Shown in pieces: positions 7,972 through 44,320 of a stretch of DNA of 44,320 bases; position 1 is the stretch's first letter; each line of letters opens with the position of its first letter. Source of the DNA: Psammoneis japonica (lineage: Eukaryota); NCBI GenBank assembly GCA_008632985.1, contig QPGO01000104.1:248001-292320 (forward strand), read 5' to 3'. Below the pieces are notes generated by a model. That model did no database searches. It was not told the DNA's origin and saw only the letters and a list, made by a program, of their open reading frames with translations. The position numbers and the translations under genes are program-made.

Positions 7972-9091
7972 GGTTAGCGCAACGGCGTGTTGTTGCGGTG
8001 TGTGTTTTGTGTTGCGTTTGTCACCGTTATCATTTTTGTACGTATGAATGCATTGATGGCAGATACGGCAGCATGTACCGGTACAGTAAAACAATAAACG
8101 TCACACCGTCTGTCTGTCCTTCCTTCCCAGTTTGTGCACCTGCCTTGGGGCGGCATTTGATTTGACTCTCGGGCCACATTCAGTCACTCCAACGTGACAA
8201 GGAAACCCCAGCAACCTGCACTGCACCCCTGTGGGGAAAGGGAAATGGACCAATCTTCAGAAATGTCATGGAGGAACTTCCCCACAAGTCTGTCTCGTTT
8301 CATGCCACCACACATGACCCCTTGGTTGTGAGATCTGCCAGACTGCATTCTTCCGAACGAGTGTGTCCAGCGAGCAAGTGTCAAGACAAATGCTGCCATT
8401 GCAGTCTTTGGGGCAATCATCAGTGGAGTCAATGGCATCAACAGACTTGTCTTGGGCAACATGGGGCTGTGAAGGTGATGCAATTGGGGGGGCCTGTTCC
8501 AGCTCCAGGTGATCCGCATGGGTTCGATTCCCACCATTTGGCAATTTGTGCATTTGGTGCATTGAGCTTTTTCAAAATCCATTTTTTGCCAAAAAGAAGG
8601 GCAAGTGTGCACTTTACATGTGTTTTCAGGTGTGCACTTGCCTTTCGATTTTTGAAACGATCAAAATTGAAGGAGTTCAATGTGCCAAAATCGGCCTCTT
8701 GCGTGATGAAAAGCGGATCACCCAGAGCTGGAACAGGCCTTGGACACACAGTTGCAAGGAAAAATTTCCATGGAGGCTGTGCAAGGCCACGCAAATTCCC
8801 CAGTGTTGACTCCAGAAAAAAAAAAAAAAGTGAGCAAAAATTGATGTGGTGAAATTGCCGCAAAATGATCACAAGAAAGAGACAAAGTGTTTTTGACGTG
8901 ACTTGGTTCGCTCAACACACAGCATGTGCTCATGATCTCACCGCTGTTCACACTGCCACCAAAATGTGTCATGCCCTCAAACAACATGAACATTGGAAAT
9001 GTTGCTGAGTGCAAATGAAGAAAGAGTCAAAGTCTGGACACAAAAAAACAGCACCACAATGTTGGTGGGCAACAACCAGATGAAGGACAAG

Positions 9092-9369
9092 TGACAGAAA
9101 TTGAAGGCAAATGGCAAGAATTCAAACAATGACTCCTTGCTGCTGTCTGAACAGCAGATGAGTCTCCGCTCAGAGACCGTTGCAGGAGCCGAAAGACGTG
9201 CAAGTCAGTGTGATCGGGCCACTGTTGTCATTCTTGTGAGCCGCATGGCTCGAAAGCAAACTGCGTCGCGCACGCACGCGCGGAACTAAAGAGCACACAA
9301 AACTGTGTGCGGTGAACCAAACAGCGTGCGACATTTCGCGCGCACCCAAATCCTGTTCAAATCCTGTCA
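9092..9369 (-). repeat. 3' LTR of Copia element
   Basis: Aligns end to end with 12349-12626; TG...CA termini with 6-bp inverted ends. Confidence 0.92.
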
Positions 9370-9479
9370 CTCCCCAGTTTGCTTGAGGAGTCACAGAAAC
9401 AGATTCGACTTCGGATTGACCAAAGAACTTTGGAGTCAAAGCACCAAAACATGAAGAGACAAGAAAGGATCAAGATCTG

Positions 9480-9700
9480 AGAGCAACGTTGCATTCTCCA
9501 AGTGGGTCATCTTGAGATGAGCTGCGCCTCCCCAATTGCAGATGCCGTTGTGCTTTTCAAAGCTCAAGGCACACTTGGGATCTTGTGGGATTCCACATCC
9601 GCACTTGCAATGGAAGGAGCAAAGCTTGGTCTGGTTGACAATGTTGAACGGCAGGGCAACATCGCAGGACAATGCAAACAAGTTGACATCACCTTCACTT
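9480..9700 (-). pseudogene. Copia pol remnant (integrase-RT linker)
   Basis: IVNQTKLCSFH..CKCGCGIPQDPKCALSFEKHNGICNW resembles the diatom Copia linker as I recall it (VNQAKLRSF..YKYGYEIP..Y.HA..D..NGN..W), with Tyr read as Cys. Confidence 0.65.
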
Positions 9701-9929
9701 CCTGAGCGAAGGTCGTAAAGACTGATGGCCGTCTGTTGGTTCTTGGAATGGTTGCCACACTGGGCTGCTGCTAGAAAAACAGAGCAGTGCTCGTGCAGGG
9801 TGGCATGGCGTTTGCACGACTCGGGGAACAGAGCAAGCATGAGTTCAAAGGCACAAGCGGTGGTCTTGTGTTCCACCAATCCGATTGCAAGCTCAGCTGC
9901 ATCTCCTGAGAGACTGATCCAATTGGAGA

Positions 9930-10665
9930 AACGAGTCTCAAGGTGCAAGCCTTTGGGGATCGGATTGGAGCAAGACATCTTGTGGTGCAAGGCTGCAGAT
10001 GTCTGATTGGGGCAACCAGTCCCGTGCTGCAAGACTTCTGGGATCCACCAAAAGGACTTGCCATTCTTGTGACACGAGTCTTCGGGGATCCAATCAGGAG
10101 GCCAAGTCTTGAGGTGCAAGACTTGGGGGATCCAATCAGGAGGCCGAGTCTTGTGGTGCAAGACTTGAGGGATCCAATCTGGAGGCTGAGTCTTGAGGTA
10201 CGAGACGTGGAGGATCCAATTGGGAGGCCCGGTCTCGAGGCACGAGACATGGAGAGTCCAGTTGGGAGGCCTGGTCTCAAGGCACGAGACTTGGGGCATC
10301 CGATCAGGAGGCCCAGTCTCGATGTGTGAGACTTGAGGCATCCGATCAGGAGGCCCAGTCTCGAGGTGCGAGACTTGGGGGATCCAACCAGGAGGCCCAG
10401 TCTCGAGGCACGAGACTTGAGGCATCCAATCAGGAGGCCCAGTCTCGTGGTGCGATGCTTGGAGGATCTGAAGACAACGAAGCTGCTTGGATGTCCTGAA
10501 CTCCAGTCAGGAGGCCTGGTCTCAAGGTGCGAGACTTGGGGCATCCAGTCAGGAGGCCTGGTCTCAAGGTGCGAGACTTGGGGCATCCAATCAGGAGGCC
10601 TCGTCTCATGGTGCGATGCTTGGAGGATCCGAAGACAACGAAGCTGCTTGGATTTCCTGAACTCC
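9930..10665. repeat. 42-bp tandem repeat (about 15 units) inside the Copia element, with a duplicated ~55-bp interruption
   Basis: GATCCAATCAGGAGGCC recurs every 42 bp (e.g. 10087, 10129); minus-strand reading repeats 14 aa (CLETGPPDWIPQVS). GGTGCGATGCTTGGAGGATC...GAACTCC occurs at about 10449 and 10610. Confidence 0.9.
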
Positions 10666-10761
10666 CCATCTGATGAACCGGTTGAACTGTTGTGAACAGA
10701 TTCAATGACGGGAAAAGGAGGCTCCCCATCAGGAGATGCGAGAAGCAAGTTGTCATCTCCA

Positions 10762-11412
10762 TCACTTCCCAAATGAAGACTGTGAAGGGTGACAGCAGTC
10801 GACACGTGGAGGTTGGCAGCACGTGGTTTGCGGGGTGCAAAGACTGCAGCTTTGGAAGCCATGGGTGGAGTGTCCCAACTGGTCCTGCACTGGGCCGAGG
10901 TTGCTTGCAGGCGGGTTGGTCAAGACATGTGGGGCGCGACTGACACCACTTCTGGGGGACACCTGAGTGGTGGCACAGTGCAAGGCTGGTGTCAAAATGG
11001 CACTGGGTTCACCTGGTTTGGATGGCAAGGGACTCAGCACAGGTGCGGAGGGTGCTGTGCCAGTGGCTAGAGAGGTCAAGCAGTCCGGACCAAGGCGGCA
11101 GTTGCGAAATTCGTCGGGTGTGAGCAACTGGGGTTCATTGGTCACATCATCACCGTTGCAAACTTTGACAAAGCAGAAGCTGATCAAAGCTGCCAGGAGG
11201 TTTCTGTGGGTCCGTGGCAAAGGCACTGCATTGGCGCCGTCTCTGTGAGTGAGGGCGTCAATTTGGGTGGGTGAGAACATGAACAACTCCTCACACGATT
11301 CAATCCCATTGATGGACAGGGCAGAACGAAGAGGGCTGTCATCGTCTTGATTGAGCACAGTGCCTGGAATGCATTTGAAGCTTTCGGTTTGTTGCTGTCG
11401 TGTGAGAACCAT
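10762..11412 (-). pseudogene. Copia gag N-terminal remnant
   Basis: MVLTRQQQ..F..VLNQDDDSPLRSAL..GI..LTPDEF..RLGP resembles diatom Copia gag starts; lies just downstream of the 5' LTR and leader on the minus strand. Confidence 0.7.
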
Positions 11413-12348: not shown

Positions 12349-12626
12349 TGACAGAAATTGAAGGCAAATGGCAAGAATTCAAACAACAACTCCTTGCTGC
12401 TGTCCAAACAGCAGATGAGTTTCCACTCAGAGACCATCGCAGGAGCTGAAAGACGTGCAAGTCGGTGCAATTGGGCTGCTGTTGTTGTTCTTGTGAGCCG
12501 TGTGGCTCGAAAGCAAACTGCATCGCGCGCGTGCGCGCGGAGCCAAAGAGCACACAAAACTGTGCGCGGTGAACTAAACAGCGCGCGACATTTCGCGTGC
12601 ACCCAAATCCTGTTCAAATCCTGTCA
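12349..12626 (-). repeat. 5' LTR of Copia element
   Basis: Matches 9092-9369. Confidence 0.92.
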
Positions 12627-16144: not shown

Positions 16145-16329
16145 TGAATGAGACAGGCACATGTGCTCTGTGTCCAAGTGTGCCCTCTCTGACACATGTG
16201 TGTCAACTGATGCACTGGACATTCAAGAAGCCGTTGGGAGTCAGTTCCAATCAGCGATTGTGCTGATCAGGTCTCTTCTCGGTTCTCTCACAACCTGTTT
16301 TATCAAGTCATCCCAAGCTGGATCTTGCA
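16145..16329 (+). repeat. 5' LTR of gypsy element
   Basis: Aligns without gaps to 21948-22132; ends GATCTTGCA. Confidence 0.92.
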
Positions 16330-17855: not shown

Positions 17856-17879
17856 GAAGAAGGAGCTGAATGCTCCCAA

Positions 17880-20800
17880 TTGCCTGCATGTGAAGCATTT
17901 GTTGAAGATGATTGTGCTGTGCCTGAAAATTTGCCTGAAAGTTTTGCCTTTGATTGTTTTGAAAATCCCAACGAACTGTTGCCTGTCAAATTTGAAGACA
18001 CTGCAGAAAATTGCATGAATGAAGAGGGGGACGTGTTTGATCAAGATGCATTTGAGCACAATGTTCCTCTCCCCAAAATGGGTTTGCAAGTCTCGCGTGC
18101 CATGTTGGTCCCATCAACTCTGTCAGTTGCCAAATTGACCCAACGGCATGAGTCGAATCGCATGATGCATGTGCCATTTGATTCTGGTGGATCTCACACT
18201 GTGATCTCTTCTCAAGTTTTGCCTCATGGAGCTGCGCCATCCATTGATGGGCAAGGAGCACAAGCTTTCCAAACCATTGCAGGTCCTTTCCAGTCGGGTC
18301 ATTGGGTGGCTCTAAGTGACATTGCACTGCCCGAATTCAACAAGACCAGAAGAGTTGACGGTTGTGTGGCTCATGTGTTTGATGCTCCGTGTGCGCATGA
18401 TGTCATTTTGGGTCAAGATTTCCCAGACAAAATTGGACTCCATTTGAACCATGACACAAGAACGCTGCGTTGGTTGGACCGCATCATTCCAATGAAGGAG
18501 CCTCATCATTGGTCCAAGTCCTGCAACTGGTGTGTTGCACTGGACCAAATGGATGAATTCGATGAAGATTGCAAGGACGAATGGAGCTGCGGATGTGACG
18601 ATGGACATGATGGCCACATGTTGGATGCCAAGCATGAAGCAACAGATCCTGCGGAAGTGGTCCGCAACCTGGATCACCTGATGGAAGAACAAAAGAAGAA
18701 ACTGTTGGCGGTGTTGGAAAAATGCTCAACCTTGTTTGACGGAACTTTGGGTCACTGTCCTCATGAAAAGGTGCACCTGGAGGTGGAAGAAAATGCTGTG
18801 CCCTGTCACTCAAAACCTTTTCCTGTTGCTCGTGTCAACGAGGAAGACGCGTTCAGGTCCAGGTGGGACCTTGCGCTGCTGAACTGTGACATCAACAGTT
18901 TTTTGAATCACGTCGTATGTTGCGCACGTAGATTTCTACGTGATTTTTTCGATGTTTTGTGTCATTTTACGGTGCACTCATTGAGCAATCCGTCCAACAA
19001 CTTTTGACATTTTTTGTTGCAGTGCAATTCTGTGGTGTCCTAAGAATCGTGCAGGGCAGGCGCATTTGCAAAAGCATCAAGTGGCAAGAGGCACAATTTC
19101 ACCACAAACTTGGCCGTTTGTTTGATGTTGAAGACAAACACATCCATTGGTTAAATTCTTGCACTGCGGAGCTCGCATGCAGAATTCTGTGGGCCCAATG
19201 TCACACGGAGTTCCACCTGGGACTGGAACCCATTGGAAGCATTTAAAAAGGAACTGAAGCATTTGGTGGACCTGGGAGTGTTGCGACCATGTGGACCTGC
19301 GGAATGGGCAGCTGGTGCCTTCATTGCTCCAAAGAAGGACGGCCAAGTGCATTGGGCATCTGATTTCCGTGAACTGAATGAGGCACTCAAGCAAAAAAGT
19401 CCACCCTTTTCCGGTTGTCCAAGATGCACTGCAGCGGAGAGCGGGGCACAAGTTCTTCACCAAACTCAACCTTGCTGTGTTCTGCTGCAACTTGGAATTG
19501 GACGATGAAAGCAAGGAGCTGGCAACAATTGCAACCCCGCACGGAAAGTTCCAATGCTGTCGCATGGCCATGGGATTGAAGCCAGCTCCAGATGTTGCTC
19601 AGTCTGTCATTGAAAAGATTTTGCATGGTTTGGACGTTGAAACTTGTGTTGATGACATTGGCGCCTTTGACGCTGACTTTGGCTGCCATCTCTCTCATCT
19701 TGACAAAGTGTTGCATCATCTGGAAGAGAATGGATTGAAGGTGAACCCATTGAAATGCAAGTGGTGTGTCCAAGAGATGGATTTCTGGGGCATTGGCTCA
19801 CTCCAACTGGTGTCAAACCATGGAAGAAAAAGGTCAAAGCGATTCTGCGAATGCAACCTCCACGGAACACCACGCAACTTCGCTCCTTTTTGGGTGCAGT
19901 GACCTGTTGTCGCAACATGTGGCCTCGTCGTTCTCACTTGCTTGCGCCTTCAATGGAATTGACAGGCAAAAGCCAGCTCCATTGGTCAGCGGCATGTCAG
20001 AAAGCATTTGAAGAAATGAAGGCAGTGATCACAGCGGAAGCTCTCCTGGCCCATCCAACCACAACCTGCTGTCCATGTGTGTGCCGATGCATCAGACTGT
20101 CAGATGGGTGCAGCCATTGTCCAAGATGGCAAACCTGTGGCGCACTGGTCCAAGAAGCTCTCAGCAGCTCAATGCAACTGTTCAACGATGGAAAAAGAAC
20201 TCCTGGTGGTCATCATGTGCTTCAAAGAATTTTGCACGATGTTGCTCGGTGCTGACATTGCTGTTCATGCTGACCATGAAATCTCACCTTTGCACTTTGA
20301 ATGCACAGCGCGTCCTTCGTTGGCATCCATTCCTTGAAGATTTCGTGCCCACCTTTGAACACATTGAAGGCAAGAACAACATGCTGGCCAATTGTTTTTC
20401 TCGACTCCCACGCATGGATCCACCTTCGGAGGGGAAGAGCCTTGGGCCAAGCAGCAAATGCAAAGGAAAAATCATTCATTTTGAAAAGTTGGGCAGCAGT
20501 GAATTGAGCAAGGCTGAGGAAGAAGAAGATTTGGAGTTGGGCACTTGCAGGTTCAAGTTTTGCCATGCTCCTGTCAATCCTTCTGATGAGTCTCATGCTT
20601 TGTCTTCTCTGCTTGATGAACCTGAATTGTTTGAATGCTCTTTGGACTGTCCGACATTGGACGAGATGCCAAATCCCACCGAGATGTTGCGGACACAACA
20701 GCTCCAGTTTGAGGACCAGCAACTGATCAACAGAGACAACAGAACCCACAGCAATTCGTGGTCAAGATTGTGAACCAGCGTCCTCTCATGTGTTGTCGTT

Positions 20801-21830
20801 TGCATTTGAATGATCTGCCTGGAGCATGGAAAATTTGCACTCCGACTGCATTGTTGCCTGATGTGCTCATGTGGTGTCATCGTGTGTTGGGCCATTGTGG
20901 AGTTGTTTGTTTCTACGAGAGCATTCGCACTCACATGCATCACCCTGCATTGCTTGGCATTGTAATGAGCTTGCATGCGACGCCTGTCAACATTTCAAAC
21001 AACTCGGTCCAGGACATGGAGAATTGCCTGAACGCCAAGCACCATCAGCTCCGTGGTCGGAAGCAGCAGTTGACCTTGTTGGACCGTGGAAAATGCCGAT
21101 TCAAGATCAAGAAATTGAACTCAGCACCCATGCTTGCATTGATGCTGTTGCTGGCCTGACTGAACTCACACATGTTGACAACAAAACTTCTCAACATGTT
21201 GCCAACAAGTTCCGCAACCTTTGGTTGGCTCGTTGTCCCAGACCAAATCGATGTGTCCATGACAACGGCAGTGAATTCATTGGTTGGGAATTTCAAATGC
21301 CATTGAACCAGGCTGGTGTTGAAGATGCTCCGACGACCTCATGGAATCCCACAGCCAACTCGATTTGTGAATGAATGCACCAAACGGCAGCTGACATTTT
21401 GCGAACTGTGGTTGCTGCCAACCCACCTTTGAACATTCAACAGGCCAAGCAGATGGTGGATGATGCCCTTGCTGCAGCCTCCTTTGCATTGCAATGCTCT
21501 CACTCAAGGTCCATGGGTGTGTCCAGTGGAGCGTTGGCATTCCAACAAGACATGATTTTGGATCCACCTGTTCTCTCCGATCTTGCTGCTGTTTGAGCCA
21601 ACCGTCAAGTGCTTGTCAACAAAAACCTGCAACGACAAAACGCAAAATGCCATTCTTGTGATTGTTCAGTGGGACAAGATGTGTCAATCAAGTCCGTGGA
21701 TCCAGCGAAGCCAGAAGCTAGAGCTCATGGTCTGTTTCGAATTGTGCAAGTCCATGCCAATGGGACAGTTTCGGCACTGTGAGCACCACACATCATTGAG
21801 CGGATTGATGTTTGTTGCGTGGTGCCGCGC
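17880..21830 (+). pseudogene. Gypsy pol (protease-RT-RNase H-integrase), frameshifted and interrupted by an insertion
   Basis: FDSGGSHT, DVILGQDF, FIAPKKDGQVHWASDFRELN, RMAMGLKPAPD, CVDD (YxDD position), [56 protein letters not shown]. Confidence 0.95.
18847..19234. mobile_element. 388-bp MITE-like insertion in gypsy pol
   Basis: Flanked by direct repeat GGAAG (18842-18846, 19235-19239). Imperfect TIRs: GTTCAGGTCCAGGTGGGAC versus the reverse complement of the right end, GTTCCAGTCCCAGGTGGAAC. Removal restores PFPVARVNEEAFKKELKHL. Confidence 0.9.
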
Positions 21831-21947
21831 CGGAGTTGAGGGTTTCTTCCCAACGTCTGGGTTCCCTTCTCCATGTGCATTGGAGTTTAAATTTGAGTCA
21901 AGTGGTTCCAATGGTGCACATGATTCTTGCACCATTGAGGGGAAGAG

Positions 21948-22132
21948 CAAATGAGATGGGCACATGTGCTCTGTGTCCGAGTGTGCCCTCTCTGATGCGT
22001 GCATGTCAACCAACACATGAGATGTTCAAGAAGCAGTTAGAAGTTAGCTCCGATCAGTGACTGTGCTGATCGGGTCTCTTCTCAGTTCTCTCACAACCTG
22101 TTTTGTCAAGTCATCCCAAGCCAGATCTTGCA
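21948..22132 (+). repeat. 3' LTR of gypsy element
   Basis: Follows the PPT; matches 16145-16329. Confidence 0.92.
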
Positions 22133-27200: not shown

Positions 27201-27706
27201 CTTCCTCCCTGTCCGCACAACTCGCTGCATCTCTGTGGTCACTCATCAAAGAACCCATGGCAGCATGAGTTTGCCTGGCAAGGTTTTGACATTGCACGTG
27301 ACAGATCGCTCTTTGTTCTTGGCACTGGTGCAGACAGCAGGCAGATTTGCACCAACAAGCACATGGTTCATCTCAGCAATGAAAAACTTTTGTTGATCCA
27401 AACCTTGAGCCTCTTTTGAGAGATCACGGTTGCTTTGAACCACCCTCAACAATGTGCTGCACAGCTTGTGTGACATTTTGTTCTTGCATTTTGGTGGGTG
27501 CATCTGTGCAACATGGTCGAAGTGTGTCGTCATCACCTCTTTAAACAACCATTTCCCCGCGTGCGGAAGCTCTCCAGCGTTGTCATCCATTGTCCCTTCT
27601 TTGGCAATGCACCGATTGGTGCAACCAACTGTCACCTGGGCCTCTGGGTTGTTGGCGTCAACGCTGGCAATGTCGTGGTTGTCCTTCAAATCAACACATG
27701 GGAAAT

Positions 27707-29291
27707 GAGAGCAACCCAACCTGCCAAATGTTGGGGGACATTTTGGTCAGAAATGCTCCGGCATGATGGGGGAGTGGTTTTCTCCCCCAAGACGTGCCAT
27801 CCTGGGTGTCTGCATGTTGGGGGGTGGTGCATGTTGGGTGAGCTCAATTTCTGCTCCCCCAACATGTCACCTCACGGCCGCACCTCCTTTCCCACCACGT
27901 CAGCACAATTTTTGTGCTTGATGCTGTTTTGTCATCATTGTTCTTCTTGCCCCAAGTTCTGTGTGATGTCACCTCACAGTCACAGATGTCCACATCACCT
28001 GCGACGTGTCCTTCTCACATCATTGCCATGGTGCTCATGTTGGCCTGACTGGCCCACATCCTTTTCATCATCACACACTCATCATCGGCTGTTGTCAGTC
28101 AGACATTTCCTTTCAATCTGTGGACCCTGTGTCACTCTCCCATGGTTTGTGTGTGGCAGTTGTCCAACCAACTTGCTTGAATGCCCTCATTGCTGTCAAA
28201 CAGCTCTTCCAATCTTGTTTGACAAATGCCCACACGAATGGGCGGTCACCCTCCAGTGCCCTCCCTGCAGCACCTGCTGGGTTGTTTGCAAAGATTGTCC
28301 TTGATGCAAAGACCGCATTCTCAGTTTTGCGGAAGCCAGCTGCCATGACACACAAATCCACCAGTGCAAAAAACGCGCTGCTCCCTCTCTCTCACCCCCA
28401 ACCAATGATGCAGATTCTCATTCTGTGGCCGTCCCTGACAATGATGTCACCACTTTTGCAGCAGATGATTCTGTCATGTCTGCAGACCTTTTCGGTGCAG
28501 ACCTGCCTTTGACCAACATGTTGGAAGAAGCCGACCGGTTTGCCGCCCCTCCAGCCGTTTCCACAGATTTGGCCAATCCACCCCACGTCAAAATCACCAA
28601 TCAGTTGCTCTCCATTCGACGCACTTGTTCCGATCCTTTTTTTGCTGCCAACAACTGGGCAGTGAAAAACGTCACCTGCTTGCCAAGAATTTGTTTGACA
28701 ATGCACAATTTGAAAAGTGTCAGACAAGGATGCTGACATTCACTTGTTGCTGGGCAAGTCAATGTTGTCCCTGTCTGAGCAACAGCAGCACATGTTGCTG
28801 GACTTGTTCAGATGGTTGGAACCCACCATGCTGGTGGGGGAAAGAAATGAGAGTCTGGATCACTTTTGGTTTGTTCTGCCCACCTCACCTGCACATGTTT
28901 GCAACACATGTTTAGAAGGATTGCATTCCCTTGAGGAGATGGTGCCCTTGGCACCAATGCAAACACTCGGCTCTGGCAAAAACACACACTCCGATTGCAG
29001 TGTGATTGACTTGTTGTGAAACTTTTCAGCATTTGGAGCCAGCCCAGAAAATCTGTGTGAAGCCGCTGACAAAAATGGTTTGTTTCAAGAAAATCAACCG
29101 GTTTTCCATGCAAGACAGTGTCGTTGGGTTGAGGGAATTTGTGACACTTCCATTTCAATTTGGAACAATGATGAACACACTGATTGTCCATTGCTTGTCA
29201 CAGCCTTTGAAACCTTTTCTGATGATTTTAACCCTGCCGCGAGCCTCATTGCATCCATTGTCAATGGCACTTGGGCTTGCCATGTTGGGTT
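27707..29291. repeat. Duplicated segment A, copy 2
   Basis: Matches 13842-15393. Confidence 0.92.
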
Positions 29292-29297
29292 TGGAAG

Positions 29298-31760
29298 GAT
29301 CAATTCACTGGGGATTTGTTGACTCCGAGTGCAGAGACCTGTGCCAAGATTTGGTTCTAAGATGGGCAACCCTTGCAACTGACATTCAGATCTCCATCAA
29401 CTTGCACTTGTTCAATCTTCTGCGGACTGACTTGGGCAGATCGAACTTGCACATCACCACAATTTTCTTTGACAAATCATTGGTCATGCAGGCTGCTTCT
29501 TCTGGCCAGTTGCCCAAACACCAATTCCAGCAATCAAGATTTGTCACAGACATGGCATGTGGATGATTGGAGTCAAAAATCCAACCTTTGCGCACAGCCA
29601 CACAGTGGTTGTTTGACAATCCACACAAGGTGAGCTTCTTGCACAACAAATCTCCCGTTGTGATGCTGACATCTCTGGTGCAGTCTATCTTCCTGCCTTT
29701 GTAGAACTTCATGGGACCATCAACCGGAGGATGCTCCTTCCGCAACAGGCCTTGCATCAGAGACACCGCAAACAACATCCGTCAGTCTCCAAGAGCAGCT
29801 GATGTTGCAGAAGCCTCAATTTGATGGCTGACACAATGAGTCATGTGCTCGTCTTGCAAGCAATGCAGCACACTGGCTGACAAAAAAAAAACGCACGTGT
29901 CATTGTTGCCCTGTAAAAAGCAAACCTTGGGACAAAGGTGGGGAGCAAGATTTCCTCTGGCTTCGACAACACCGATTCTTTGCCTGGCTTCAATGCCATC
30001 ATGCCTTGCACACACCTGGGTGGCGACACTCAAAGTTGCGCTCAGCCCACCAACCAGAATGATGCTTTTGCTCGTCACCCATGACTGTCCATGCATGGAA
30101 TTTTGGGTGCTTGTTGCCCACATCTTCTGCGCCATCGCTGAGTCCTCCGCAAATGCTGTTTTGCCTCGTCCCTCTGCAGGGCTTGCACTTTCCAAATCTG
30201 GTCTGTTTCAATCTGCTGTTCAGCCCTTTGTTGTGTGATTTTCCTCACCTTCTTGTTGAGTTTCTGTGGCCTGTTGGGCTTCTCCTTGGCCTTTTTAACT
30301 GGACACCGCAGCTTGTCCATGTCGGCTGTTCCCTCATCATTGCTTTCTTTGAAACAGTCTTTTTCTTGTTCTTTGCACCAACCAAACAAATGAGGCACGT
30401 CACATTCCAGCAAATCCCTGGAACATTTTGGTGCTTCTGCACTCCTGTCTTCGGGCACTGTCCATTCCACACAGCACACTTTTGACAAATTGATTGCATC
30501 ATTGTGCTCCACTTTGGCATGGTGACGTGCATCCATGTCCTCTTTTGGACAGACTTGGTGTTTGGGAACCTTGCACAGCAACCCTTTGATGTTGTCTTTT
30601 CCCATTGCTTTTTTCAAAAATTCAAAGAACGCAATGCCTCAATTTCCATGCATGCTCTTGGATTGTTTGATTTGACTGCACGGTTTTGACATCTTTTGTG
30701 AATGAGTTTGCCAAGCGGCAGATCCCTGGGCTTGGCGAACTTGGTCTTGCTGACTGCAGCAGAGGGTTTTGTGTCAGGCAGTCCATGCTCTGACAGATCA
30801 ATTGCAAGTTGGCTGTGCATTGCCTCCTTTGTGGTTTTCAGAGAATCCTTGAACCATCAAGGATTGTCCTTTTTCCAGACAGCACTGTTGTTGAGAGTTT
30901 TCTTCACACAGTTCTGGCAAACATCCTTGTCATGGAGAAATGGCAACAAAAACAACTTTGACTGGGTCTGCACCTGCTCCGTTGTTCTCAAAACTCTTGA
31001 GTTGTCATTTTCAATTTCTGCCAATTCTTTCCAGTTCCGCCATGGCTCTGCGAAACCCATTGTTTTTTAGCAGCACTCAACGACATTCTCCTGGCAATGA
31101 GGCAATGTGCCCCACTTGTTGCTTGCATGAAAGCAAAGGGACTGGGCAAGACCAAATGAAAATGGACAAACACCGCACTTTTTGGCAATGACATCCTCTT
31201 GCAGATGGTTGATCGTGCACACAAAGTCAAACGTAACTCCAATGTTGTGAAAGCAACGGCAGAGGAGCGCAGCCACCACACCATTGGACATGTCGCAGCC
31301 ATGTTCCTTTGCTGTTTTTTGCTCACAAACAATTGGCATGTGTGTGTGTTTGTGCTGGACATGCTGCCAGATAACTGAGCAGTTTTCATCATCAAAAACG
31401 CCAAGAAAGAAATGTGCCATGGCCTCTTGAAACCCCGCTTTGTCTTCCAGGTTGTTTGCGCATTTGTTGCTGTGGTGTGTGATGTCAAACAAGAAGACAC
31501 TGGAGCCTAGAGAACTTTTGAATGTGGCCATTTTCACCAAGCCGTTAGTGTCATGCTGGCTGTCGACCACCCCAGTCAATGCAGAACAATGCCAAGGGTG
31601 AGTGGCTGCACCCCTCCTTCCGAAGTGTGCCTTGTCACTCTCGACAAAGAGCTTGATTCTGGCAGGGGTGGGATCAACATTTTCCCTCCCCACAGCAACT
31701 TGTTCAACAGCAGTTGACAGTTGCTGCATGTTCATGTTGGACTTGTTCCCCTCCGACATG
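29298..31760 (-). pseudogene. Long degenerate ORF (about 800 codons) ending in segment B copy 2
   Basis: Chain of minus-strand fragments 31067-31798, 30857-31060, 30614-30820, 30075-30617, 29782-30195 and 29386-29778, including QGNNDTC and NNHCVAVRKGWIFDSN. Confidence 0.55.
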
Positions 31761-32975: not shown

Positions 32976-33470
32976 AATTTGGCACCCTTGGTCATTTTGC
33001 TTTTGTGGTTTTGCAAAACTTGGCCATTTTGTGCCCTTTGTGATTTTGCGCCCTTTGTGATTTTGCACCCTTTGCTGCCACTTTGCACCCTTTGTGATTT
33101 TGCACCTTTTTGTGAATTCACCCCTTGGCCATTTTGCGCCCGCTGTGATTTTGCACCCTTTGCTGCCACTTTGCGCCCTTTGTGATTTTGCTCCCTTTGA
33201 GATTTTGCGCCCTTCGCCATTTTGCACCCTTTGCCGACATTTTGCACCCCACATGATTTTGCACCCTTTGCCGACATTTTGCACCCTTTGTGATTTTGCA
33301 CCCTTGGCCATTTTGTGCCCTTGGTCATTTTGTGCCCTTTGTGATTTTGCGCACTTGGCCATTTTGTGCCCTTTGTGATTTTGCACCTTTGTGATTTTGC
33401 ACCCTTGGCCATTTTGTGCCCTTTGTGATTTTGCACCCTTTGCCGCCATTTTGCGCCCTTTGTGATTTTG
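32976..33470. repeat. 17-bp minisatellite array (TTTTGYRCCC plus TTTGTGA or TTGGCCA)
   Basis: Alternating TTTTGCACCCTTTGTGA and TTTTGTGCCCTTGGCCA-type units, with some 20-bp TTTGCCGCCA variants. Confidence 0.95.
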
Positions 33471-34199
33471 AATGAATGCTGATGTGCTGTCATGAATGCA
33501 GGCAGTTTGTGTGCTGTTGGCAATTGGCCCACTTTTGCTCATTCAGTGACCCCGGTGGCACAACATCTCACAATTCTAGAACCTGTTGATGCTGTTCAAC
33601 ACTCTGTCTTGTCTCACACCCAATTCTTGGCCATCATGGCAGCATTTGTTCACTTCATCAGAGCCAACATGCCATGATGTTCATTGCCTGGAACGGGCAT
33701 CGCAAACGGCACGACGGTGTTGTTGCGATCGATCAATTTTTGCGGCAAGCGCCATGTTGGTCCCATGGTTGCTCGTGCAATCGCTGAGTCCTTTTTGTGT
33801 GTGTCAACATTCATGGACATGAATGACATGCTCTTGGAGACCAGAGCTGTGATCCGCTAGACATGACGTCAGTGGACGGAATGTTTGATCACATGGATGG
33901 AACATGTTGGCCAAGACACGCAAACATTCGTGATGAAGACAACACAATGACTCATGCGCTGAGGTCTGTTTTTGACTGCGTGCATTTGACCAATCAAAAC
34001 ACGTTGTCAAACTCTTTAGACACTGCACATGTGGACACATGTCTGTCGCCAATCATCACTTGGGAGCAACACCGCCTGATTGTGGGTTCGCCAAGCAGAA
34101 ACCGCCAAATCGGCACAAGAACCACACATTTCTCCCACTTTTCTCCGCTCACATGAGTGGATGCTCACGCGTCAAAATGCAAGTGACCATTGATGCACC

Positions 34200-35085
34200 A
34201 TGGCTGCCACCGCAGCCTTTGCCGCTTGTCTTGCGCACTGTGGATGCAATGCGCAGATGCGCACCTGCACAGCCCATCAAGGCTTTGCTGCTGTCGAGGA
34301 CTTGGAACAGGCCCCTTTGACAGAAATTGCAGACATGACTGAGGGCATTGTGAAAAGCGTGGGTGCCGCCGCTGACCCCCAAGTCCGCTTCCCATGCCTG
34401 GCAAATCGCAAGTTCAAGGCACTGCGTGCATGGATTGACTGCCGCAGAGCCCGAAACCAAGAGCCGACCGCTGCTCTCTTCGCTGGCGATGTCATTGGAG
34501 CATGGACGGCACGTCTCACTGAACTGGAGCAATTCAAGTCAGCAGACTCAGACAACGAATCGGCTGCCAAGACGGCCATGGAGCTCAAGAATCTGTGTGA
34601 CTGGCCTGCCTTCCAAAAGTTGCTGGAGACCAAACTGCGCCACCACCGCAGCGCCGTTGCCAGCGTGCCACTTGTCTTCCCAACCAGGGAGCATGAAGAC
34701 GTCACCGCCAAAATGTTGGCTGCCACCTGCACTGCCATTGACGACTCATTGCTGCCACTTGACTTGCAGGAGCTCAGCACATGCAGGGTGGGCAATGCCT
34801 GCATGATCTCTTGAAGAAGTTGGTGACAGGGGGGCCCAGATGGGCTTTTGTCAAACCCTCCAATTGCAGCCGCAATGGTTGCACTGCTTTCTCTGCACTT
34901 GAGAGGCAGGCAGAAGGATTGGCTGCCGCCACTGCCCAAAAGAACCGTGCTTGTGCACAGATTGCTGCTGCAAAGCACAATGGACGGGGTCGATTCACTT
35001 TCGACCAGTGCACTCAGCACCATCAAAAAGCTCACAACGACTTGTCCAAGCTTGATGAACCGGCAGCCGAGACCAAGAAGGTCTC
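34200..35085 (+). pseudogene. Diatom-type Copia gag, frameshifted and 3'-truncated
   Basis: KFKALRAWID, VPLVF..REH, LHDLLKKLVTGGPRWAFVKP..RNG..AFSAL..QAEG, RACAQI..AKHNGRGRFTFDQC..HQKAHNDL..LDEP..ETKKV match the recalled diatom Copia gag core, with Tyr read as Cys/His. Confidence 0.8.
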
Positions 35086-35389
35086 TTTGTCCCCCAAAGG
35101 ATCAACCCTTGTGCTCCCCTTTTTTGGCAATCAAAACTCCCCGAGACCGCCCCAAAGATGTGGCACTTGCCCCATTGGAAGCACTGAAAGAACACCCTCT
35201 TGCAATTGTTCTGTCCCGCTGGCATCATTCCCAACCAGACGTCTTTGATGAAGCAATCCGAAAGCAATGGAAAACAAGTGTGAAGCTTCGCGTGATTCCA
35301 TCACTTCACCACACTGAGGCTCTCTCCTTTTGTTTGTCCTGCACCATCAAGGAAGCACAAGGAGTGGTGGGCGTTGTCCCGTCTAAGAA

Positions 35390-39550: not shown

Positions 39551-39944
39551 CTCGGTGGTTGGTGATGTTTTGGTCCCTGTTTGTGAAATTTACGGTGTTT
39601 GCTCTGTTTCAGATCCCTCCTCACTTTGGAACGTTCCAACATGGCTTGCTTCAGTGGAATGATCAGATCCAGTCAGAAGCAAAGAGCCACTCCATTGCTG
39701 TGGTTTCAAGTGCTTTGAAGGTGCCAAATCAATTTGCTGTTGCTGTCTGTGACGCCACTCCCAACTGTTCCCGGCGGGTGTCATCATTTGTTGGCAATGC
39801 CCATCTTGGCCAATCGCAATGCATTCCTGCTGCACACATGTGTGCTGGGGGTGTGGGTCAGCTTGTTGCTGGAGCTGCAGGGCGGAAGCGCAGCAGCACT
39901 TCAAACACAGAATTTTGGTTTTGTTTTTGTGCCAACTCACCCAA

Positions 39945-40800
39945 GCCCTTGGCCATTTTGTGCCATTTGAGATTCTGCTCCCTTTCTGATTTTGCGGCTT
40001 TGGCCATTTTGTGCCCTTTGTGATTTTGCACCCTTTGCCACCATTTTGCGCCCTTTGTGATTTTGCAGCTTTGGCCATTTTGCACCCTTTGTGATTTTGC
40101 ACCCTTTGCCCCCATTTTGCGCCCTTTGTGATTTTGTGGCTTTGGCCATTTTGTGCCCTTTGTGATTTTGCACCCTTTGCCGCCATTTTGCAGCTTTGGC
40201 CATTTTGTGCCCTTTGTGATTTTGCGCCCTGAGGCATCTCAAGCCCTTGGTCATTTTGCGCCCTTTGTGATTTTGAGCCCTTGGCCATTTTGCGCCCTTT
40301 GTGATTTTGCACCCTTTGCCGCCATTTTGCACCCTTTGTGATTTTGAGCCCTTGGCCATTTTGTGCCCTTTGTGATTGTGAGCTCTTGGCCATTTTGCGC
40401 CCTTTGTGATTTTGTGCCCTTTGTGGTTTTGCGCCCTTTGCTGCCATTTTGCACCCTTGGCCATTTCATGCCCTTTGAAGCATTGAGCACTTGGCCATTT
40501 TGCACCCTTTGTGGCATTGAGTCCTTGGCCATTTTGTGCCCTTTGTGATTTTGCACCCTTTTCCGCCATTTTGCACCCTTTGTGATTTTGCGCCCTTTGT
40601 GACTTTGCACCCTTTGCCACCATTTTGCACCCTTTGTGATTTTGAGCCCTTTGGCCATTTTTCCACCCTTTGTGGTTTTGCACCCTTTGCCGCCATTTTG
40701 GCCCTTTGTGATTTTGAGCCCTTGGCCATCTTGCACCCTTGGTCATTTTGCACCCTTTGTAATTTTGCGCCCTTTGTCGCGCCATTTTGAGCCCTTTCGC
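39945..40800. repeat. 17-bp minisatellite array, same family as 32976-33470
   Basis: About 850 bp of TTTTGYRCCC/TTTTGAGCCC plus TTTGTGA, TTGGCCA or TTTGCCGCCA units. Confidence 0.95.
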
Positions 40801-41717
40801 CCCTGTGCCATCACACACATTGTGGTCATTTGCACATGCTTCCCAAGGAAATGCAGCTGGGTCATGAAGCACTTGCTTTCCACGCCAAATGTGTGGTGTC
40901 ATGCATGGGCACAATCCTCTTTCAGGGTCACTCTGCTGTTGATCACGCACAGTTGCGCACACTCTTCAATCGAGTGTTCATGGGTGGGCCAATGCAAACA
41001 TGCGCATCAATGGGGGAGACACTTCTGAAGACCAAGGCAAAGAAAATTTCAAAGACAGCCTGAAAGCGCAGAGAAGAACATCTCACCTGCCAAACTTGGG
41101 AAGGGGTGTGTGAGTCCATGCTTGTTGAGCCGATGCAGGAATTGCCGACGCACCCTGCATCAGGTCACCCTTGGATCTCAATGACACAGGCTTCCATGGA
41201 CAACCATCATCTGGGGAAAAAATTCTAGATGACAGCAGGAAAAATCACCCTTGCACAAATGAGCAGGGCCAGAGTGCTCCCTGATGAATTGGCTGCAGCC
41301 AAGAGAGAGGCCTGCAATGTTGTTGATGGCAAGGCATTGCTCAAAACAGCGACACAATCCCTTCTCAGGATTGTGCCACAAGTGAGGCAGCACCAGGAAG
41401 TCAGGGCCAGGAGTCCGGTCAACCTTGGAAAGGAAGAGCTTCCTCCTGTGTTGCATTTCTGTTGTCCTCCAGAAACAACTTTTGGCAATGTGGTGTTCCC
41501 CAATTGAACAAAAACGGGTCAGAAAACGGCGCACAGCAGATGAGGAATGAGCGGAAAAAAGGACATGATGCGCCACATTTCTTGGCATGAGCGGATTTTC
41601 CAGAGGAGACACAGGTGCTTTTGGTGCCATCATTGCTTTGTCAGTGTCATCACAGTGGCTGCTGCCACAAAAAGATCATTGGAAAACTTGTCATCCCCCG
41701 CAAAGGGCATCACTCCA

Positions 41718-44320
41718 GAGAGGATTGCGTGCCATCTGTCTCTGCAGAACAAATGGAGTCTTCTTTGTCAGCCAGAGAATTGTCAGATCCGGATTTTGTG
41801 CCTGTGGGGAATGTGTCCGGTGATCTTTCTTGGCGAACGTCAATGTCTGCAAGAGCAAGAGACCAGCCAATGGAGTGCCCAAGGCGGGCGGAGAACTTGT
41901 CCTGTCCTGTCAGTGGCATGCCAACAGCTCAGTTTGGTTTTGCCCATTTGGGGATTCTCAAAAATGGCAAGGGCAAGGGGGAGTCACCTCCTCTTTTGGG
42001 GAATTCCCGGGAAATGAGGGCAATTTGGCAGGAAGGAATGACTGAAAGGGCTAGGGAGGGGAACAAAAAATGAGTGCATTGCAGCAATTTCTGTTTGACA
42101 GCCGGTGTGCCTTTCACTTGTTTTCATCCAGTCGGGCAACAAGTCCACAGGGAAGAAATTTGGCAGAGATGGTGCGTGCAGGACAAATCTGATTGCAGCG
42201 CAATTGACTGGCTGAGAACAGGGTGAGCGTTTGTGGTGTGATTGGTGTTTTTACTGCGCAGGCACATGATGTGACAACATGCAACATGAAAGCATCACAT
42301 GCAACAACTTCAATGGAAATTTCAACGACATCACTCAACGGTGACAAAGAGTGTGGAAATTTGATGGAGTTGCTGAGAGCAGAACATGCACGTGCAGGTC
42401 CAGCACAATTTTGTCTTGTTTCAGGTGGGAATGTCGAAGACAACAATTTTGGGTCATGGGGCAATGATCGTGTCAAAAATGAGTGAGCAAGGGTGGAAAT
42501 GAATGACAAATGTGGAGCGCCAGTGAGCAAACCTGCATTTCAGTCAGAGAGGTGTGAGGTGTGCCCCCAACAAATGAAGGAGTGCGCCAAGAATTGCAAG
42601 GTGGGCAACAATGCCCTGTGACTCGTGCACCGCTTTTTGCCTCTCTGATGTTCTGCCCAGAACAGAGCAGCACCCAGCTCATGTTCCTCCTCCTCCTGTC
42701 CAAGTGCCTGGGCCACTGGGCATTGTCACGTGTGGCATCCGCACAAGTGGTCAGGAGCCATCTCGCAAGGCCACATTGCTTGCTTCTCTTGCTTGCAACA
42801 CAGCTCGCAACCCATTTGGCATCTCTGCTGCTGTGTGCAATGAAAATGTCAGGACAGAAAATGGCCAGATCTCTGCTTTCCTGGACATCAAAGCCCTCTT
42901 GGATCCATCACGATGCCCAGCTGTTGCTTTTGACTCCACCAATGTTCATCTCAATGCCCTTGTGCAACAGACCTTTGGGTCTCACCTTGCAAATGTGGGA
43001 GCTCCCATGATTGTTGGCACTCAACGTTGGGTTGCAGTTGGGAGCAATGGCAAAATGGTCAACAACACTTGCACTGGGAACCTCTTCTTTAGCACCACTC
43101 AATCTTGGATGACAACAAGCCCACCCCAGAAAACCTGCTGGACAATTTGAGTGGACTTTGCTTCCAAACGGACAAAAGAAGCTTAGCCTCAGCTTTGGTT
43201 CAACCAACTCAGCCATGGTGGAGTCAACAAATGCGCGCAGCTGGCAGCATTCACCCCCTTTTTCTCTTGACTGATGATGACAAAGTTGCCCATGACAGCA
43301 CAATTGAGCACATTCATGGCAACAATCATGCTGGAGTTGGTGGAGAGCATTTCAAACTGACTCTTTGGAGCAAATTGCACGGATCTTCAAAAGTTTCATG
43401 GCAGCCCAGTTGTCAAAGAAGGCCACAAGAACGGTTTTTGTCAATTGCTCTTTTGCAAGCAGGTCAAGTTTTGTGCCGCTCTTTCCACCACAGACAAATG
43501 TGGTCATTCCAGCTGCGCGCTCATTGGATTTTGGCATGACAACACACGTCTGGGTCAGAGTGCTTTTGACGGGCTCCAATCCCAGGTGGGGCTTTTTGTG
43601 ACATTGGTGCACAGAATTCTGCGTGTGAGCTCCGCAGCAAAATCATCAAGCAATGAAAATGTGAATGATCGCTGACAGAAATAGAGGCAATTTTACGAAC
43701 GCATCTCCTCCTCCAAATTTGAAGTGCGTTGTTCACAGTTTGCCCGGGCATGTTCTTTGACATTGAAGAATGCACCCAATGCATTTTCATTGTCACAAGT
43801 GCAGAAAACAGAAAGCCTTTGGCTTGCAAAAGATGCAGTGTGGAGCAAATTTTTACAATGGAACACCAGAAATGCATGTGCAAAACATGCAACGGATGCA
43901 AAAAACAATCGTGTCACAGTCCAGCAGTGTGAGGTCCCACCCAGAGCTGGAACACGTCTTTTGCAGATTTGGGCTTCTTCTCCATTGGAGCAGATGGGTT
44001 CTTTCCCGCAATTCTTCATGGCGGGTCTCAGTCTGCCACATGATTGCTGGTGTCTGTCATGCAACCCTTTTTGTTTGTTCCTGTGTCAATCTCCCACTGC
44101 AAAAATCAGAAAGCTCATTTTCATTTCAACTGCATTGAATTTTTCCAAAAGCCAAAAAAAAGCACACTCATTTCATCTGCAAGCGTTGCACATGCATCTT
44201 GTTTGCAGCTCTGATCAATGCATCAAACATTTGCCTTTCACAATGGCTCCATTTGTGGAACAATCACTTTCACAATTCCACAATTTTGCCCAGTTGTGAG
44301 CCTGCCACAGCTCGTCATTC
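41718..44320. repeat. Duplicated segment C, copy 2 (longer copy; unidentified degenerate element, probably coding on plus)
   Basis: Matches 37188-38473 with an extra 42902-44201; runs to the window end. Confidence 0.85.

Follow-up and report, generated by a model that had tools for sequence, protein, structure and literature searches.

Nearly every TpA dinucleotide is missing from a 36-kb domain of retrotransposons and satellites in Psammoneis japonica contig QPGO01000104.1, and this is probably best explained by targeted hypermutation at the DNA level, acting on both strands and turning TA into TG or CA. The stretch analysed, here called the window, comprises 44,320 nucleotides (positions 248,001 to 292,320 of the contig), and coordinates below refer to it. 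The TpA-erased domain occupies 8097..44320 and continues past the window end. From 8097 (8101) to 44320, 110 TpA are observed against 2351 expected from base composition (observed/expected, O/E, 0.047); were TA as dense as in the adjoining genes, 8101-44320 would hold about 1458. The genes at positions 1-8100 have 326 TA against 564 expected. An earlier sequence-only reading, which described TpA as almost absent over 36 kb and normal in the adjoining genes, is thus borne out (O/E 0.05 versus 0.58). All 2-kb bins from 8001 on have a TA O/E of 0.00-0.12, with CA at 1.49-2.00, TG at 1.36-1.90 and CG at 0.29-0.57 (whole domain: TG 1.72, CA 1.71, CG 0.43); the satellites, the tandem arrays and each of these bins are as TA-free as the retroelements. 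AA is without depletion, at 1.09-1.54 in the domain bins versus 1.11-1.28 in genes.

Genes with normal TpA precede the domain. They include an MFS transporter gene with an open 5' end (1..1455, plus strand; PF07690 MFS_1, E 3.3e-36; TA O/E of bin 1-2000, 0.62), an ORF with a zf-MYND finger (1644..2633, plus; PF01753, E 4e-08) and a calcineurin-like metallophosphoesterase gene (5032..5934, plus; PF00149, E 7.6e-07) with 52 homologues, the best at 38% identity and oomycetes among those named. A 491-aa ORF of unassigned family (6619..8094, minus), with normal TpA and no match in a Pfam scan, adjoins the boundary. In the gene part each 250-bp bin holds 4-15 TA, the last such bin starting at 7751. 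The boundary lies at 8096..8100: TAs stand at 8064, 8076, 8082, 8087 and 8095, the last normally spaced one, followed by 8615 and 9287, and the switch from normal to depleted TpA takes place within about 20 bp. Runs without TA never exceed 141 bp in the genes but reach 1891 bp in the domain. An edge with no leak is not predicted by a process spreading along chromatin; it is equally compatible with elements that were mutated before arrival.

The direction of change is TA to TG or CA, the reverse of RIP. It can be followed in a gypsy pol region encoding protease, RT, RNase H and integrase (17955..21833, plus; Pfam matches and tblastn of 19 homologues), which is disrupted by frame changes and stops and has a 5' LTR remnant at 16147..16329 and a 3' LTR remnant at 21950..22132 (both plus; 83.6% identical). 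With conserved columns defined by at least 75% agreement among at least 8 homologues (393 columns), none of the 21 Tyr columns retains Tyr (11 read TGY Cys, 8 CAY His, 1 Phe and 1 Trp), versus retention of the residue in 297 of 372 non-Tyr columns (Fisher p = 2e-14). The 74 single-step unambiguous changes comprise 24 TpA to TpG, 14 TpA to CpA, 15 CpG to TpG or CpA, 10 other transitions and 11 transversions. Of 26 polarised A>G changes, 24 fall at TpA and one follows A; Arg codons have also become His, Cys or Gln. Motifs with a lost Tyr that had been named beforehand stand at the implied places, with CVDD at 19645, DASDCQ at 20086, PVAH at 20134 and CNCST at 20173 in the gypsy element, FDQC at 35000, and CKCGC at 9595 on the minus strand. 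As a control, an identical pipeline applied to 10 of 79 related metagenome loci keeps conserved Tyr at 191 of 212 positions, with Cys never found. TA O/E across the 79 loci is 0.46-1.08, and Tyr makes up 3.1-5.1% of all 19 gypsy homologues. One named gypsy relative is from the diatom Cylindrotheca closterium.

A remnant of an unnamed protein family unrelated to gypsy, which contains FDQC and one frame change (34236..35125, plus; homologue comparison), gives the same picture. None of its 7 conserved Tyr columns still reads Tyr (Cys in 4; His, Phe and Lys in 1 each); of the other conserved columns, 81 of 101 retain their residue. Its look-alikes form an Atlas cluster with Bacillariophyta as the commonest phylum. 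The label "Copia" given to this family earlier is unsupported, since no Pfam domain was found in the 9 scanned of its 103 homologues. A homologue search with the ORF adjoining CKCGC found none. The label "LINE" is likewise unsupported, with no LINE-type domain among the 181 ORFs of at least 90 aa, and the altered motifs "LDC" (from LINE RIDY) and "RAC" (from KAY) were not located in the window. Measured against gene-like O/E, the TA deficit (~1250) and the CG deficit (~1247) together approximate the TG+CA excess (~2420); this mass balance indicates that TA was converted by transitions and not lost otherwise.

Both DNA strands are targeted, and a 3' pyrimidine (TAY) is preferred. Strand balance is evident within the one gypsy element (11 Cys versus 8 His) and across the domain (4000 TG versus 3759 CA). 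The 110 surviving TAs are distributed as YTAR 62, RTAR 23, YTAY 18 and RTAY 7, versus 63, 65, 106 and 92 in the genes (p = 8e-13). Among products, the ratio (RCAR+YTGY)/(RTGR+YCAY) is 1.48 in the domain versus 1.16 in genes (p = 0.005), and a purine precedes 10 of 11 Tyr>His sites while a pyrimidine precedes 11 of 16 Tyr>Cys sites (p = 0.005). The use of both strands, the undepleted AA and the predominance of YTAR among survivors together define the target as TA followed by a pyrimidine. The two-strand, TpA-specific A:T>G:C process that the sequence-only reading had proposed for the repeat domain, with destruction of conserved Tyr codons, is upheld. As TA is its own reverse complement, adenine- and thymine-directed chemistry would leave indistinguishable sequence.

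Repeat pairs within the domain, all on the plus strand, give information on the timing of conversion; overall they hold 83 sites where one copy has TG and the other CA. Expected numbers come from a CpG-decay model in which an equal rate is presumed at every CpG. Pair P1, an LTR-like direct repeat (9092..9369 and 12349..12626, 89.6% identical), has 7 such discordant sites versus 1.1 (0.2-3.6) from CpG decay, and P2 (13836..15397 and 27701..29292, 84.7% identical) has 29 versus 6.5 (2.3-17). Both pairs underwent independent TA conversions after duplication. The second P2 copy lies between the two 1.37-kb LTR-like direct repeats of P4 (25833..27201 and 29293..30623, 85% identical), whose discordance is inside the CpG expectation. 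The 1.19-kb direct repeats of P5 (37187..38365 and 41718..42901, 92.1% identical) show no TA-derived discordance (5 observed versus 6.5 expected) and differences of CpG type; P5 was already TA-free at duplication. Tandem sequences comprise a 42-bp repeat array (10075..10665) and two arrays of a 17-bp satellite (32977..33471, with unit variants GCGCC/GCACC/GTGCC, and 39944..40797). CpG decay is a second, separate process over the domain (CpG O/E 0.43) and supplies about half of its TG/CA excess. In the portion of PMC9998398 consulted, diatom transposon methylation depends on DNMT5a. Decay of the kind expected from 5mC deamination in such methylated transposons is likewise active here. Deamination of 5mC at CpG, unlike the TpA process, is unable to remove TpA or to change Tyr to Cys or His.

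Under the favoured explanation, a sequence-context-specific A:T>G:C hypermutation would convert almost every 5'-TA-3' to TG or CA and would go no further than the margin of the adjoining gene. Each event would alter one base of the palindromic TA, after which the site would no longer be a target, so that TG and CA would build up and CG would not be made. Adenine before a pyrimidine would be converted most readily, leaving mainly YTAR, where TAR is read on both strands. Tyr codons (replaced by Cys or His codons) and TAA/TAG stops would be lost wholesale, with Ile to Val, Thr or Met among further changes, and such coding changes would inactivate the elements, as might suit a role in genome defence. 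Ordinary CpG decay of 5mC type acts on the domain in addition. The favoured candidate enzyme is a TadA/ADAT-like deaminase that would act in situ on DNA adenine, giving hypoxanthine, read as G, and that may be recruited to silenced or foreign DNA.

The only account of the signature to date is a 2026 preprint on the unrelated alga Bigelowiella natans by Mettrop et al. (bioRxiv 10.64898/2026.01.13.699255). In the parts of the preprint consulted, mutation-accumulation lines show 231 mutations within two integrated viral regions, of which 230 are A>G/T>C and each of those lies at TpA; the signature is verified in Illumina data from the lines, and the genome holds 124 TpA-poor, CpA+TpG-rich clusters. 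Its authors favour adenine deamination, as a putative mechanism, with an ADAT2-like candidate. Going by the same parts, the two cases share change solely from TpA to TpG or CpA on both strands, foreign or mobile DNA beside a normally evolving genome, and clusters with TpA loss and CpA/TpG gain, with RT and DDE domains enriched among TpA-poor CDS. Because the same signature arises live in B. natans, its kind is not new, and the earlier suggestion of novelty went too far; a literature search found no report of TpA-erasing hypermutation in diatoms. B. natans is a chlorarachniophyte (Rhizaria), whereas the mobile elements here have diatom relatives. Its live targets, as the preprint describes them, are NCLDV and a virophage insert with partial depletion (Rho 0.45, NCLDV), in contrast to the LTR-retrotransposon and satellite domain here, with near saturation (O/E 0.05) and a base-pair-sharp edge. 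The preprint's main text gives no 3' context, whereas TAY is preferred here, and ongoing activity is a feature of B. natans, whereas the present case is known from its sequence trace. The present case is marked by a likely diatom host, the involvement of retrotransposons and satellites, near saturation and the 3' preference.

Comparison with better-known systems sets the process apart. Fungal RIP changes C:G to T:A, mostly CpA to TpA, and enriches TpA. Shared with RIP are transitions confined to repeats beside intact genes, destruction of coding capacity, a dinucleotide signature and, in some repeat pairs, mutation after duplication. The direction is opposite, A:T>G:C at TpA with TpA erased, in line with the earlier statement that C>T deamination is not involved. 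APOBEC enzymes change C to U; ADAR acts on RNA, favours a 3' G and leaves its traces on a single strand of the DNA copied from it. Animal ADAR/APOBEC editing of retroelements and viruses resembles the present case in its deaminase-style transitions, fixed 5' neighbour and crippled mobile elements, but the present process affects both DNA strands, extends to non-transcribed satellites and is hindered by a 3' purine.

Thymine chemistry is a possible, though tentative, alternative. A TET/JBP-type oxygenase would convert the T of TpA to 5hmU or 5fU in silenced DNA, and mispairing of the oxidised base with G, or its misrepair, would give T>C (A>G on the other strand). All counts suit a T-centred rule equally (RTA sensitive, YTA resistant), since TA is palindromic. 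5-Formyluracil mispairs with G, and dinoflagellate 5hmU favours TpA. A dinoflagellate TET/JBP homologue makes DNA 5hmU and is linked to transposon silencing, according to the portion of PMC11572971 consulted. A candidate modification or enzyme in the present organism, however, has no support, and adenine deamination by an ADAT2-like candidate is the preference expressed in the consulted text of the B. natans preprint (bioRxiv 10.64898/2026.01.13.699255).

It is unlikely that true TA was read as TG or CA through dense base modification or through polishing or assembly error. A base-caller could produce a razor-sharp edge and context dependence, and the four runs holding the stretch are one sample, possibly the assembly's own source. 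Symmetric modification at a palindrome, however, would give conflicting strand calls and a consensus with TA and CG, both of which are depleted instead, and a context-driven miscall would resolve homologous sites alike, against the 83 discordant sites. The elements also bear frameshifts, stops and transversions. Contigs of one run, which may be the assembly's source, contain 0.63 of sampled 31-mers from 5001-15000; as the gene part makes up only 31% of that interval, about half of the TA-free words are probably present in them as exact 31-mers. In the consulted text of the preprint, Illumina lines verify the signature in B. natans (bioRxiv 10.64898/2026.01.13.699255).

Editing before integration, of retrotransposon RNA or cDNA (ADAR-like, ADAT-like or on single-stranded cDNA) with copies arriving mutated, is rather improbable. 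It accounts for the sharp edge without leak and for P5 being TA-free before its duplication. Against it stand the near-equal effect on both strands in one element, the equally TA-free satellites, tandem arrays and 2-kb bins, the independent changes in P1 and P2 after duplication, and protection by a 3' purine, opposite to the ADAR preference. From the parts of the B. natans preprint consulted (bioRxiv 10.64898/2026.01.13.699255), ADAR-type enzymes favour a 5' U, as this explanation would want, but the target there is an integrated single-copy viral region.

Targeted conversion of DNA also fits better than Pol eta, the polymerase proposed in the sequence-only reading. The A>G errors of Pol eta fall at WA motifs, which would entail loss of AA as well, and error-prone repair synthesis by such a Y-family polymerase recruited to heterochromatin might be imagined. 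This is very unlikely given the undepleted AA, the polarised A>G changes (24 after T, 1 after A) and a conversion that reached ~95% of one dinucleotide and altered little else, unlike patch synthesis. Native composition or selection, with repeat families always lacking TA or TA selected against, has nothing in its favour except the depletion itself and is rejected, as relatives have ordinary TA and Tyr contents and conserved residues are destroyed in dead, frameshifted genes.

The window divides into two parts. Ordinary genes occupy 1-8096, among them an MFS transporter gene, a zf-MYND ORF, a metallophosphoesterase gene (best homologue 38% identical, with oomycetes among the named matches) and a 491-aa ORF of unassigned family. 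An Atlas search with the MFS protein returned no informative taxon, and cluster look-ups of ten homologues yielded no names. From 8097 to the end TpA is nearly erased, with 110 sites seen against 2351 expected from base composition (O/E 0.047) and about 1458 if TA were as dense as in the genes. In the genes TpA O/E is 0.58 overall (0.50-0.62 by bin) and CpG O/E is about 1.0; the near-absence of TpA over repeats and its normal level in genes, with which the sequence-only reading had begun, is thus confirmed. All 19 of the 2-kb bins from 8001 on display TA O/E of 0.00-0.12 together with CA of 1.49-2.00 and TG of 1.36-1.90, and AA, at 1.09-1.54 in the domain bins, is not depleted. In the genes no run without TA exceeds 141 bp, and in the domain such runs reach 1891 bp. 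Chance is dismissed as the cause of the depletion.

The edge between normal and TA-free DNA, at 8095/8097, is abrupt: TA occurs at 8064, 8076, 8082, 8087 and 8095, and then at 8615 and 9287, with G+C nearly constant across the boundary. The loss is restricted to mobile and repeat DNA, i.e. a gypsy element, LTR-like repeats and satellites, and the adjoining genes are unaffected. An inverted-repeat search at the boundary found no terminal structure. The zero-leak boundary fits precise targeting, e.g. by homology or small RNA, and fits equally well the insertion beside the gene of elements that had already been mutated. CpG depletion (O/E 0.43 in the domain, 1.0 in the genes) begins at the same boundary, thus two independent mutational processes share one domain edge.

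The direction of change can be read from the element at 16147-22132, which fits Ty3/gypsy in having Asp_protease_2, RVT_1, RT_RNaseH and rve in order between direct repeats. Pfam places the protease, RT, RNase H and integrase pieces of its pol at 17955-21833, and the LTR remnants (183 bp, 83.6% identical) start at 16147 and 21950. The same domains are present in 19 gypsy homologues, each with 3.1-5.1% Tyr, which were aligned to the window by tblastn; the window copy is disrupted by several frame changes and in-frame stops. Within the 393 codons at which at least 75% of at least eight homologues agree, none of 21 conserved tyrosines is kept (11 read TGY for Cys, 8 CAY for His, 1 Phe and 1 Trp) vs 297 of 372 other conserved residues (Fisher p = 2e-14). 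Gly (25/25), Trp (15/15), Cys (9/10) and His (11/12) are retained almost throughout. The motifs quoted in the sequence-only reading were found where it had implied. Classification of the 96 changed columns gave 24 TpA>TpG, 14 TpA>CpA, 13 CpG>CpA, 2 CpG>TpG, 10 other transitions, 11 transversions, 15 multi-step changes and 7 ambiguous ones. TpA>TpG/CpA therefore makes up 38 of the 74 single-step polarised changes, the remainder being mostly CpG decay, and TpA is the site of 24 of the 26 polarised A>G and 14 of the 19 polarised T>C changes.

A second coding remnant, at 34236-35125, behaves likewise: tyrosine is kept at 0 of 7 conserved positions (4 Cys, 1 His, 1 Phe, 1 Lys) and other residues at 81 of 101, and the site of its FDQC motif is Tyr in 48 of 55 aligned homologues. 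As a control the same pipeline was applied to 10 of 79 related gypsy loci from metagenomes, chosen by hand towards the top of the list (each in the range L001-L027 and 3.8-10.4 kb long); conserved Tyr was kept in 191 of 212 cases and never became Cys. TA O/E in all 79 loci ranges from 0.46 to 1.08, hence the TA loss is a derived change at the window locus and does not characterise the element family. None of the 79 fell below 0.46, in a search whose patterns favour intact copies, so the TA-poor signature was not seen among them. L001, L002 and L003, the closest relatives, rank at or close to the bottom of the 79 in TA O/E (0.46-0.49), with TG/CA of 1.22-1.27; their low TA, near the 0.58 of the window genes, probably reflects host-like composition and not partial hypermutation.

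CpG decay is a second process in the domain besides that acting on TA. CpG O/E is 0.29-0.57 per 2-kb domain bin, and conserved Arg in the gypsy element is kept at 13 of 22 positions (the changes including 5 CAT His, 1 TGC Cys and 1 CAA Gln). About half of the excess of TG and CA can be put down to CpG decay, which cannot have removed TA. Measured against gene-like O/E, a TA deficit of about 1250 and a CpG deficit of about 1247 together match a TG+CA excess of about 2420. Methylated transposons are expected to decay in this way. In the diatom Phaeodactylum, CpG methylation of transposons is reported to be performed by DNMT5a (PMC9998398).

Both strands are affected, as judged from Tyr>Cys (11) vs Tyr>His (8) in the gypsy element and from TG (4000) vs CA (3759) in the domain. 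Satellites and every bin are TA-free, not retroelements alone, and the three observations together point to DNA, not transcript, as the substrate. With the polarised changes and the sharp boundary, these counts support the two-strand, TpA-specific A:T>G:C process confined to repeats that had been proposed from the sequence. On the gypsy sense strand TG exceeds CA by 10-14% at 16501-21000, which could reflect either a slight strand bias in the process or a skew native to the element.

The 110 surviving TAs are distributed as YTAR 62, RTAR 23, YTAY 18 and RTAY 7, and those of the genes as 63, 65, 106 and 92 in the same contexts (p = 8e-13); scaled for length, survival is about 22% for YTAR vs about 2% for RTAY. 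Surviving As are followed by A in 101 cases, by G in 64, by C in 38 and by T in 17, and a 3' purine protects the TA site. The product skew, (RCAR+YTGY)/(RTGR+YCAY), is 1.48 in the domain vs 1.16 in the genes (p = 0.005), as a 3'-pyrimidine rule predicts, and the preceding base is a purine at 10 of 11 Tyr>His and a pyrimidine at 11 of 16 Tyr>Cys changes (p = 0.005). Survivor contexts, product skew and codon flanks thus lead to a preferred target of 5'-TAY-3'. Each hit takes its site out of the target class, which accounts for the absence of newly made CG. The TAY rule is equivalent to RTA if the reaction is centred on thymine, and adenine deamination and thymine chemistry cannot be told apart by sequence. 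A thymine-directed chemistry at TA is a less likely alternative to adenine deamination; in dinoflagellates a TET/JBP homologue is reported to make 5hmU and to be tied to transposon silencing (PMC11572971).

That the true DNA differs from the assembly, through miscalling of modified bases or a similar artefact, is in our judgement very unlikely. Symmetric modification at a palindrome would be expected to yield a mixture including TA and CG, whereas TA is nearly absent and CG depleted. Homologous sites of the repeat pairs are also resolved differently, and the elements bear independent frameshifts, stops and transversions. The stretch 5001-15000 was found in four sequencing runs of one sample, the best of which, possibly the assembly's own source, holds 0.63 of 1047 sampled words; with genes making up 31% of the stretch and sampling assumed even, about half of the TA-free words are present in the contigs of that run. 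No RNA runs containing this stretch were found.

Less can be said for RNA editing by ADAR fixed through reverse transcription. ADAR favours a 5' U and a 3' G. The 5' rule agrees with the T that precedes the target, and the 3' preference is contradicted by the protection that a 3' purine gives (surviving As followed by A 101 times and by G 64 times); the one-strand pattern that such editing would leave is contradicted by the near parity of Cys with His and of TG with CA. The WA>WG signature of Pol eta, entertained as the agent in the sequence-only reading, does not fit a domain in which AA is undepleted (O/E 1.09-1.54) and A precedes a single one of the 26 polarised A>G changes; the target is TA, not WA. 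APOBEC, which converts C>U, does not fit. Fungal RIP is the chemical opposite, as it makes TpA by C:G>T:A, whereas in the domain TpA is erased (TA O/E 0.047) and the changes run from TA to TG/CA.

Self-comparison of the window returned five repeat pairs besides the gypsy LTRs, and these bear on whether the process acts in place. They are P1 (9092-9369 and 12349-12626, 89.6% identity), P2 (13836-15397 and 27701-29292, 84.7%), P4 (25833-27201 and 29293-30623, 85.0%), P5 (37187-38365 and 41718-42901, 92.1%) and P6 (31819-32030 and 32060-32271, 84.9%). At 83 aligned sites one copy has TG and the other CA, and such sites may derive from ancestral CG or ancestral TA. The CpG share was estimated from CG/CG and CG/YR counts with all CpGs assumed equal in rate, a model that is fragile if rates differ among sites; it predicts 1.1 discordant sites for P1 (95% 0.2-3.6; 7 seen), 6.5 for P2 (2.3-17; 29 seen), 15 for P4 (5.5-48; 29 seen, within CpG expectation) and 6.5 for P5 (5 seen). 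An excess, as RIP-like action after duplication would leave, is observed in P1 and P2 and is absent from P5. P1 and P2 suggest that TA sites were hit separately in the two copies once these existed, at near-normal TA density, and so support, as evidence short of proof, action on chromosomal copies. P5 is the youngest pair, and its differences are almost all of CpG type, with no TA-derived TG/CA discordance. Its TA was thus gone before it was copied, either by duplication of TA-free DNA or because a TA-free element was still mobile.

The nearest described parallel is that of Mettrop et al. in Bigelowiella natans (bioRxiv 10.64898/2026.01.13.699255), where 231 of 302 nuclear point mutations in mutation-accumulation lines fell in integrated NCLDV and virophage regions and 230 of the 231 changed A>G or T>C, every one of the 230 at TpA. 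That genome is also described as having 124 TpA-poor, CpA+TpG-rich clusters, with reverse-transcriptase and DDE domains enriched among TpA-poor CDS, and its authors propose a putative ADAT2-like DNA adenine deaminase as candidate (bioRxiv 10.64898/2026.01.13.699255). Every defining feature described there that sequence can test is matched by the window: TpA-focused A>G/T>C change, gain of CpA and TpG, and restriction to mobile DNA. The two differ in host lineage, as the mobile elements of the window have diatom relatives and its metallophosphoesterase has no match above 38% identity, which excludes B. natans as the host, and in target, with viral inserts in B. natans vs an LTR retrotransposon, LTR-like repeats and satellites here. 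They differ as well in degree (O/E 0.05 vs Rho 0.45 for a B. natans NCLDV insert, as given in the preprint) and in the 3' pyrimidine preference of the window, 3' context going without mention in the preprint's main text. The available text of the same preprint (bioRxiv 10.64898/2026.01.13.699255) does not mention diatoms, a literature search on diatoms and other algae returned RIP papers and base-editor reviews and no other report of the signature, and a 2009 paper on diatom retrotransposons (PMC2806351) makes no mention of RIP, hypermutation, dinucleotides or TpA.

The idea of a wholly new system has accordingly been overtaken by the preprint, and the window locus would instead be a new and far more extreme member in another lineage, one that adds the target rule TAY. 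A bolder reading, to which we lend appreciably less than even credence, is that diatoms or a close algal lineage have a dedicated TAY DNA-editing enzyme system, in effect a base editor of natural origin for adenine or thymine, directed almost to the base pair at transposons and satellites, that Rhizaria share it, and that it is an old, SAR-wide counterpart of RIP with opposite chemistry. If the sequence is correct, it provides a second and far more complete example of a process known from one 2026 preprint, in another algal lineage and on retrotransposons, not viral inserts, and would promote what has been an oddity of one species to a candidate for a widespread defence of marine protist genomes. 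Its fingerprint, TA with a 3' pyrimidine, on both strands, without leak into the neighbouring gene, is one that any enzyme put forward has to reproduce. A natural A:T-to-G:C enzyme working on double-stranded chromosomal DNA would also be of interest to base editing.

Loss of TAA and TAG leaves TGA as the only stop, and long false ORFs result. The domain holds 181 stop-to-stop ORFs of at least 90 aa on both strands, nearly all without a family match; Pfam recognised gypsy domains only among them, and nothing of Copia, LINE, DDE or viral type. Gene callers would call many false proteins in 8097-44320. In TA-free domains generally, where transposon proteins lose all Tyr and false ORFs arise, mis-annotation would follow unless the signature is recognised. 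The LINE label given to one element from the sequence finds no LINE domain among the 181 ORFs, and the Copia label given to the elements with FDQC and CKCGC motifs is likewise unsupported, as no RVT_2, rve or gag of Copia type occurs in the 181 ORFs or in the 9 scanned of 103 FDQC-family homologues. The ORF at 10765-11571(-), adjoining the CKCGC motif, has no homologue among longer proteins. The FDQC family itself, to which the remnant at 34236-35125 belongs, has 103 representative homologues, about 150-930 aa in length, of which the 9 scanned lack a Pfam domain. Its cluster of look-alikes in the Atlas, obtained with a language model, is mostly Bacillariophyta, and a single-protein scan limited to close relatives found none on viral contigs; the remnant may be an undescribed diatom mobile-element protein.

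Scans for tRNA and Rfam families found nothing. A 42-bp tandem array of 13 copies at 10075-10665 encodes, when read on the minus strand, a repeated ETGPPDWMPQVSHL-like peptide in long open frames, for which no homologue or family was found. A 17-bp satellite with the consensus ATTTTGCGCCCTTTGTG forms two arrays 6.5 kb apart, at 32977-33471 and 39944-40797. Its units differ as GCGCC, GCACC and GTGCC, a mark of CpG decay inside the array.
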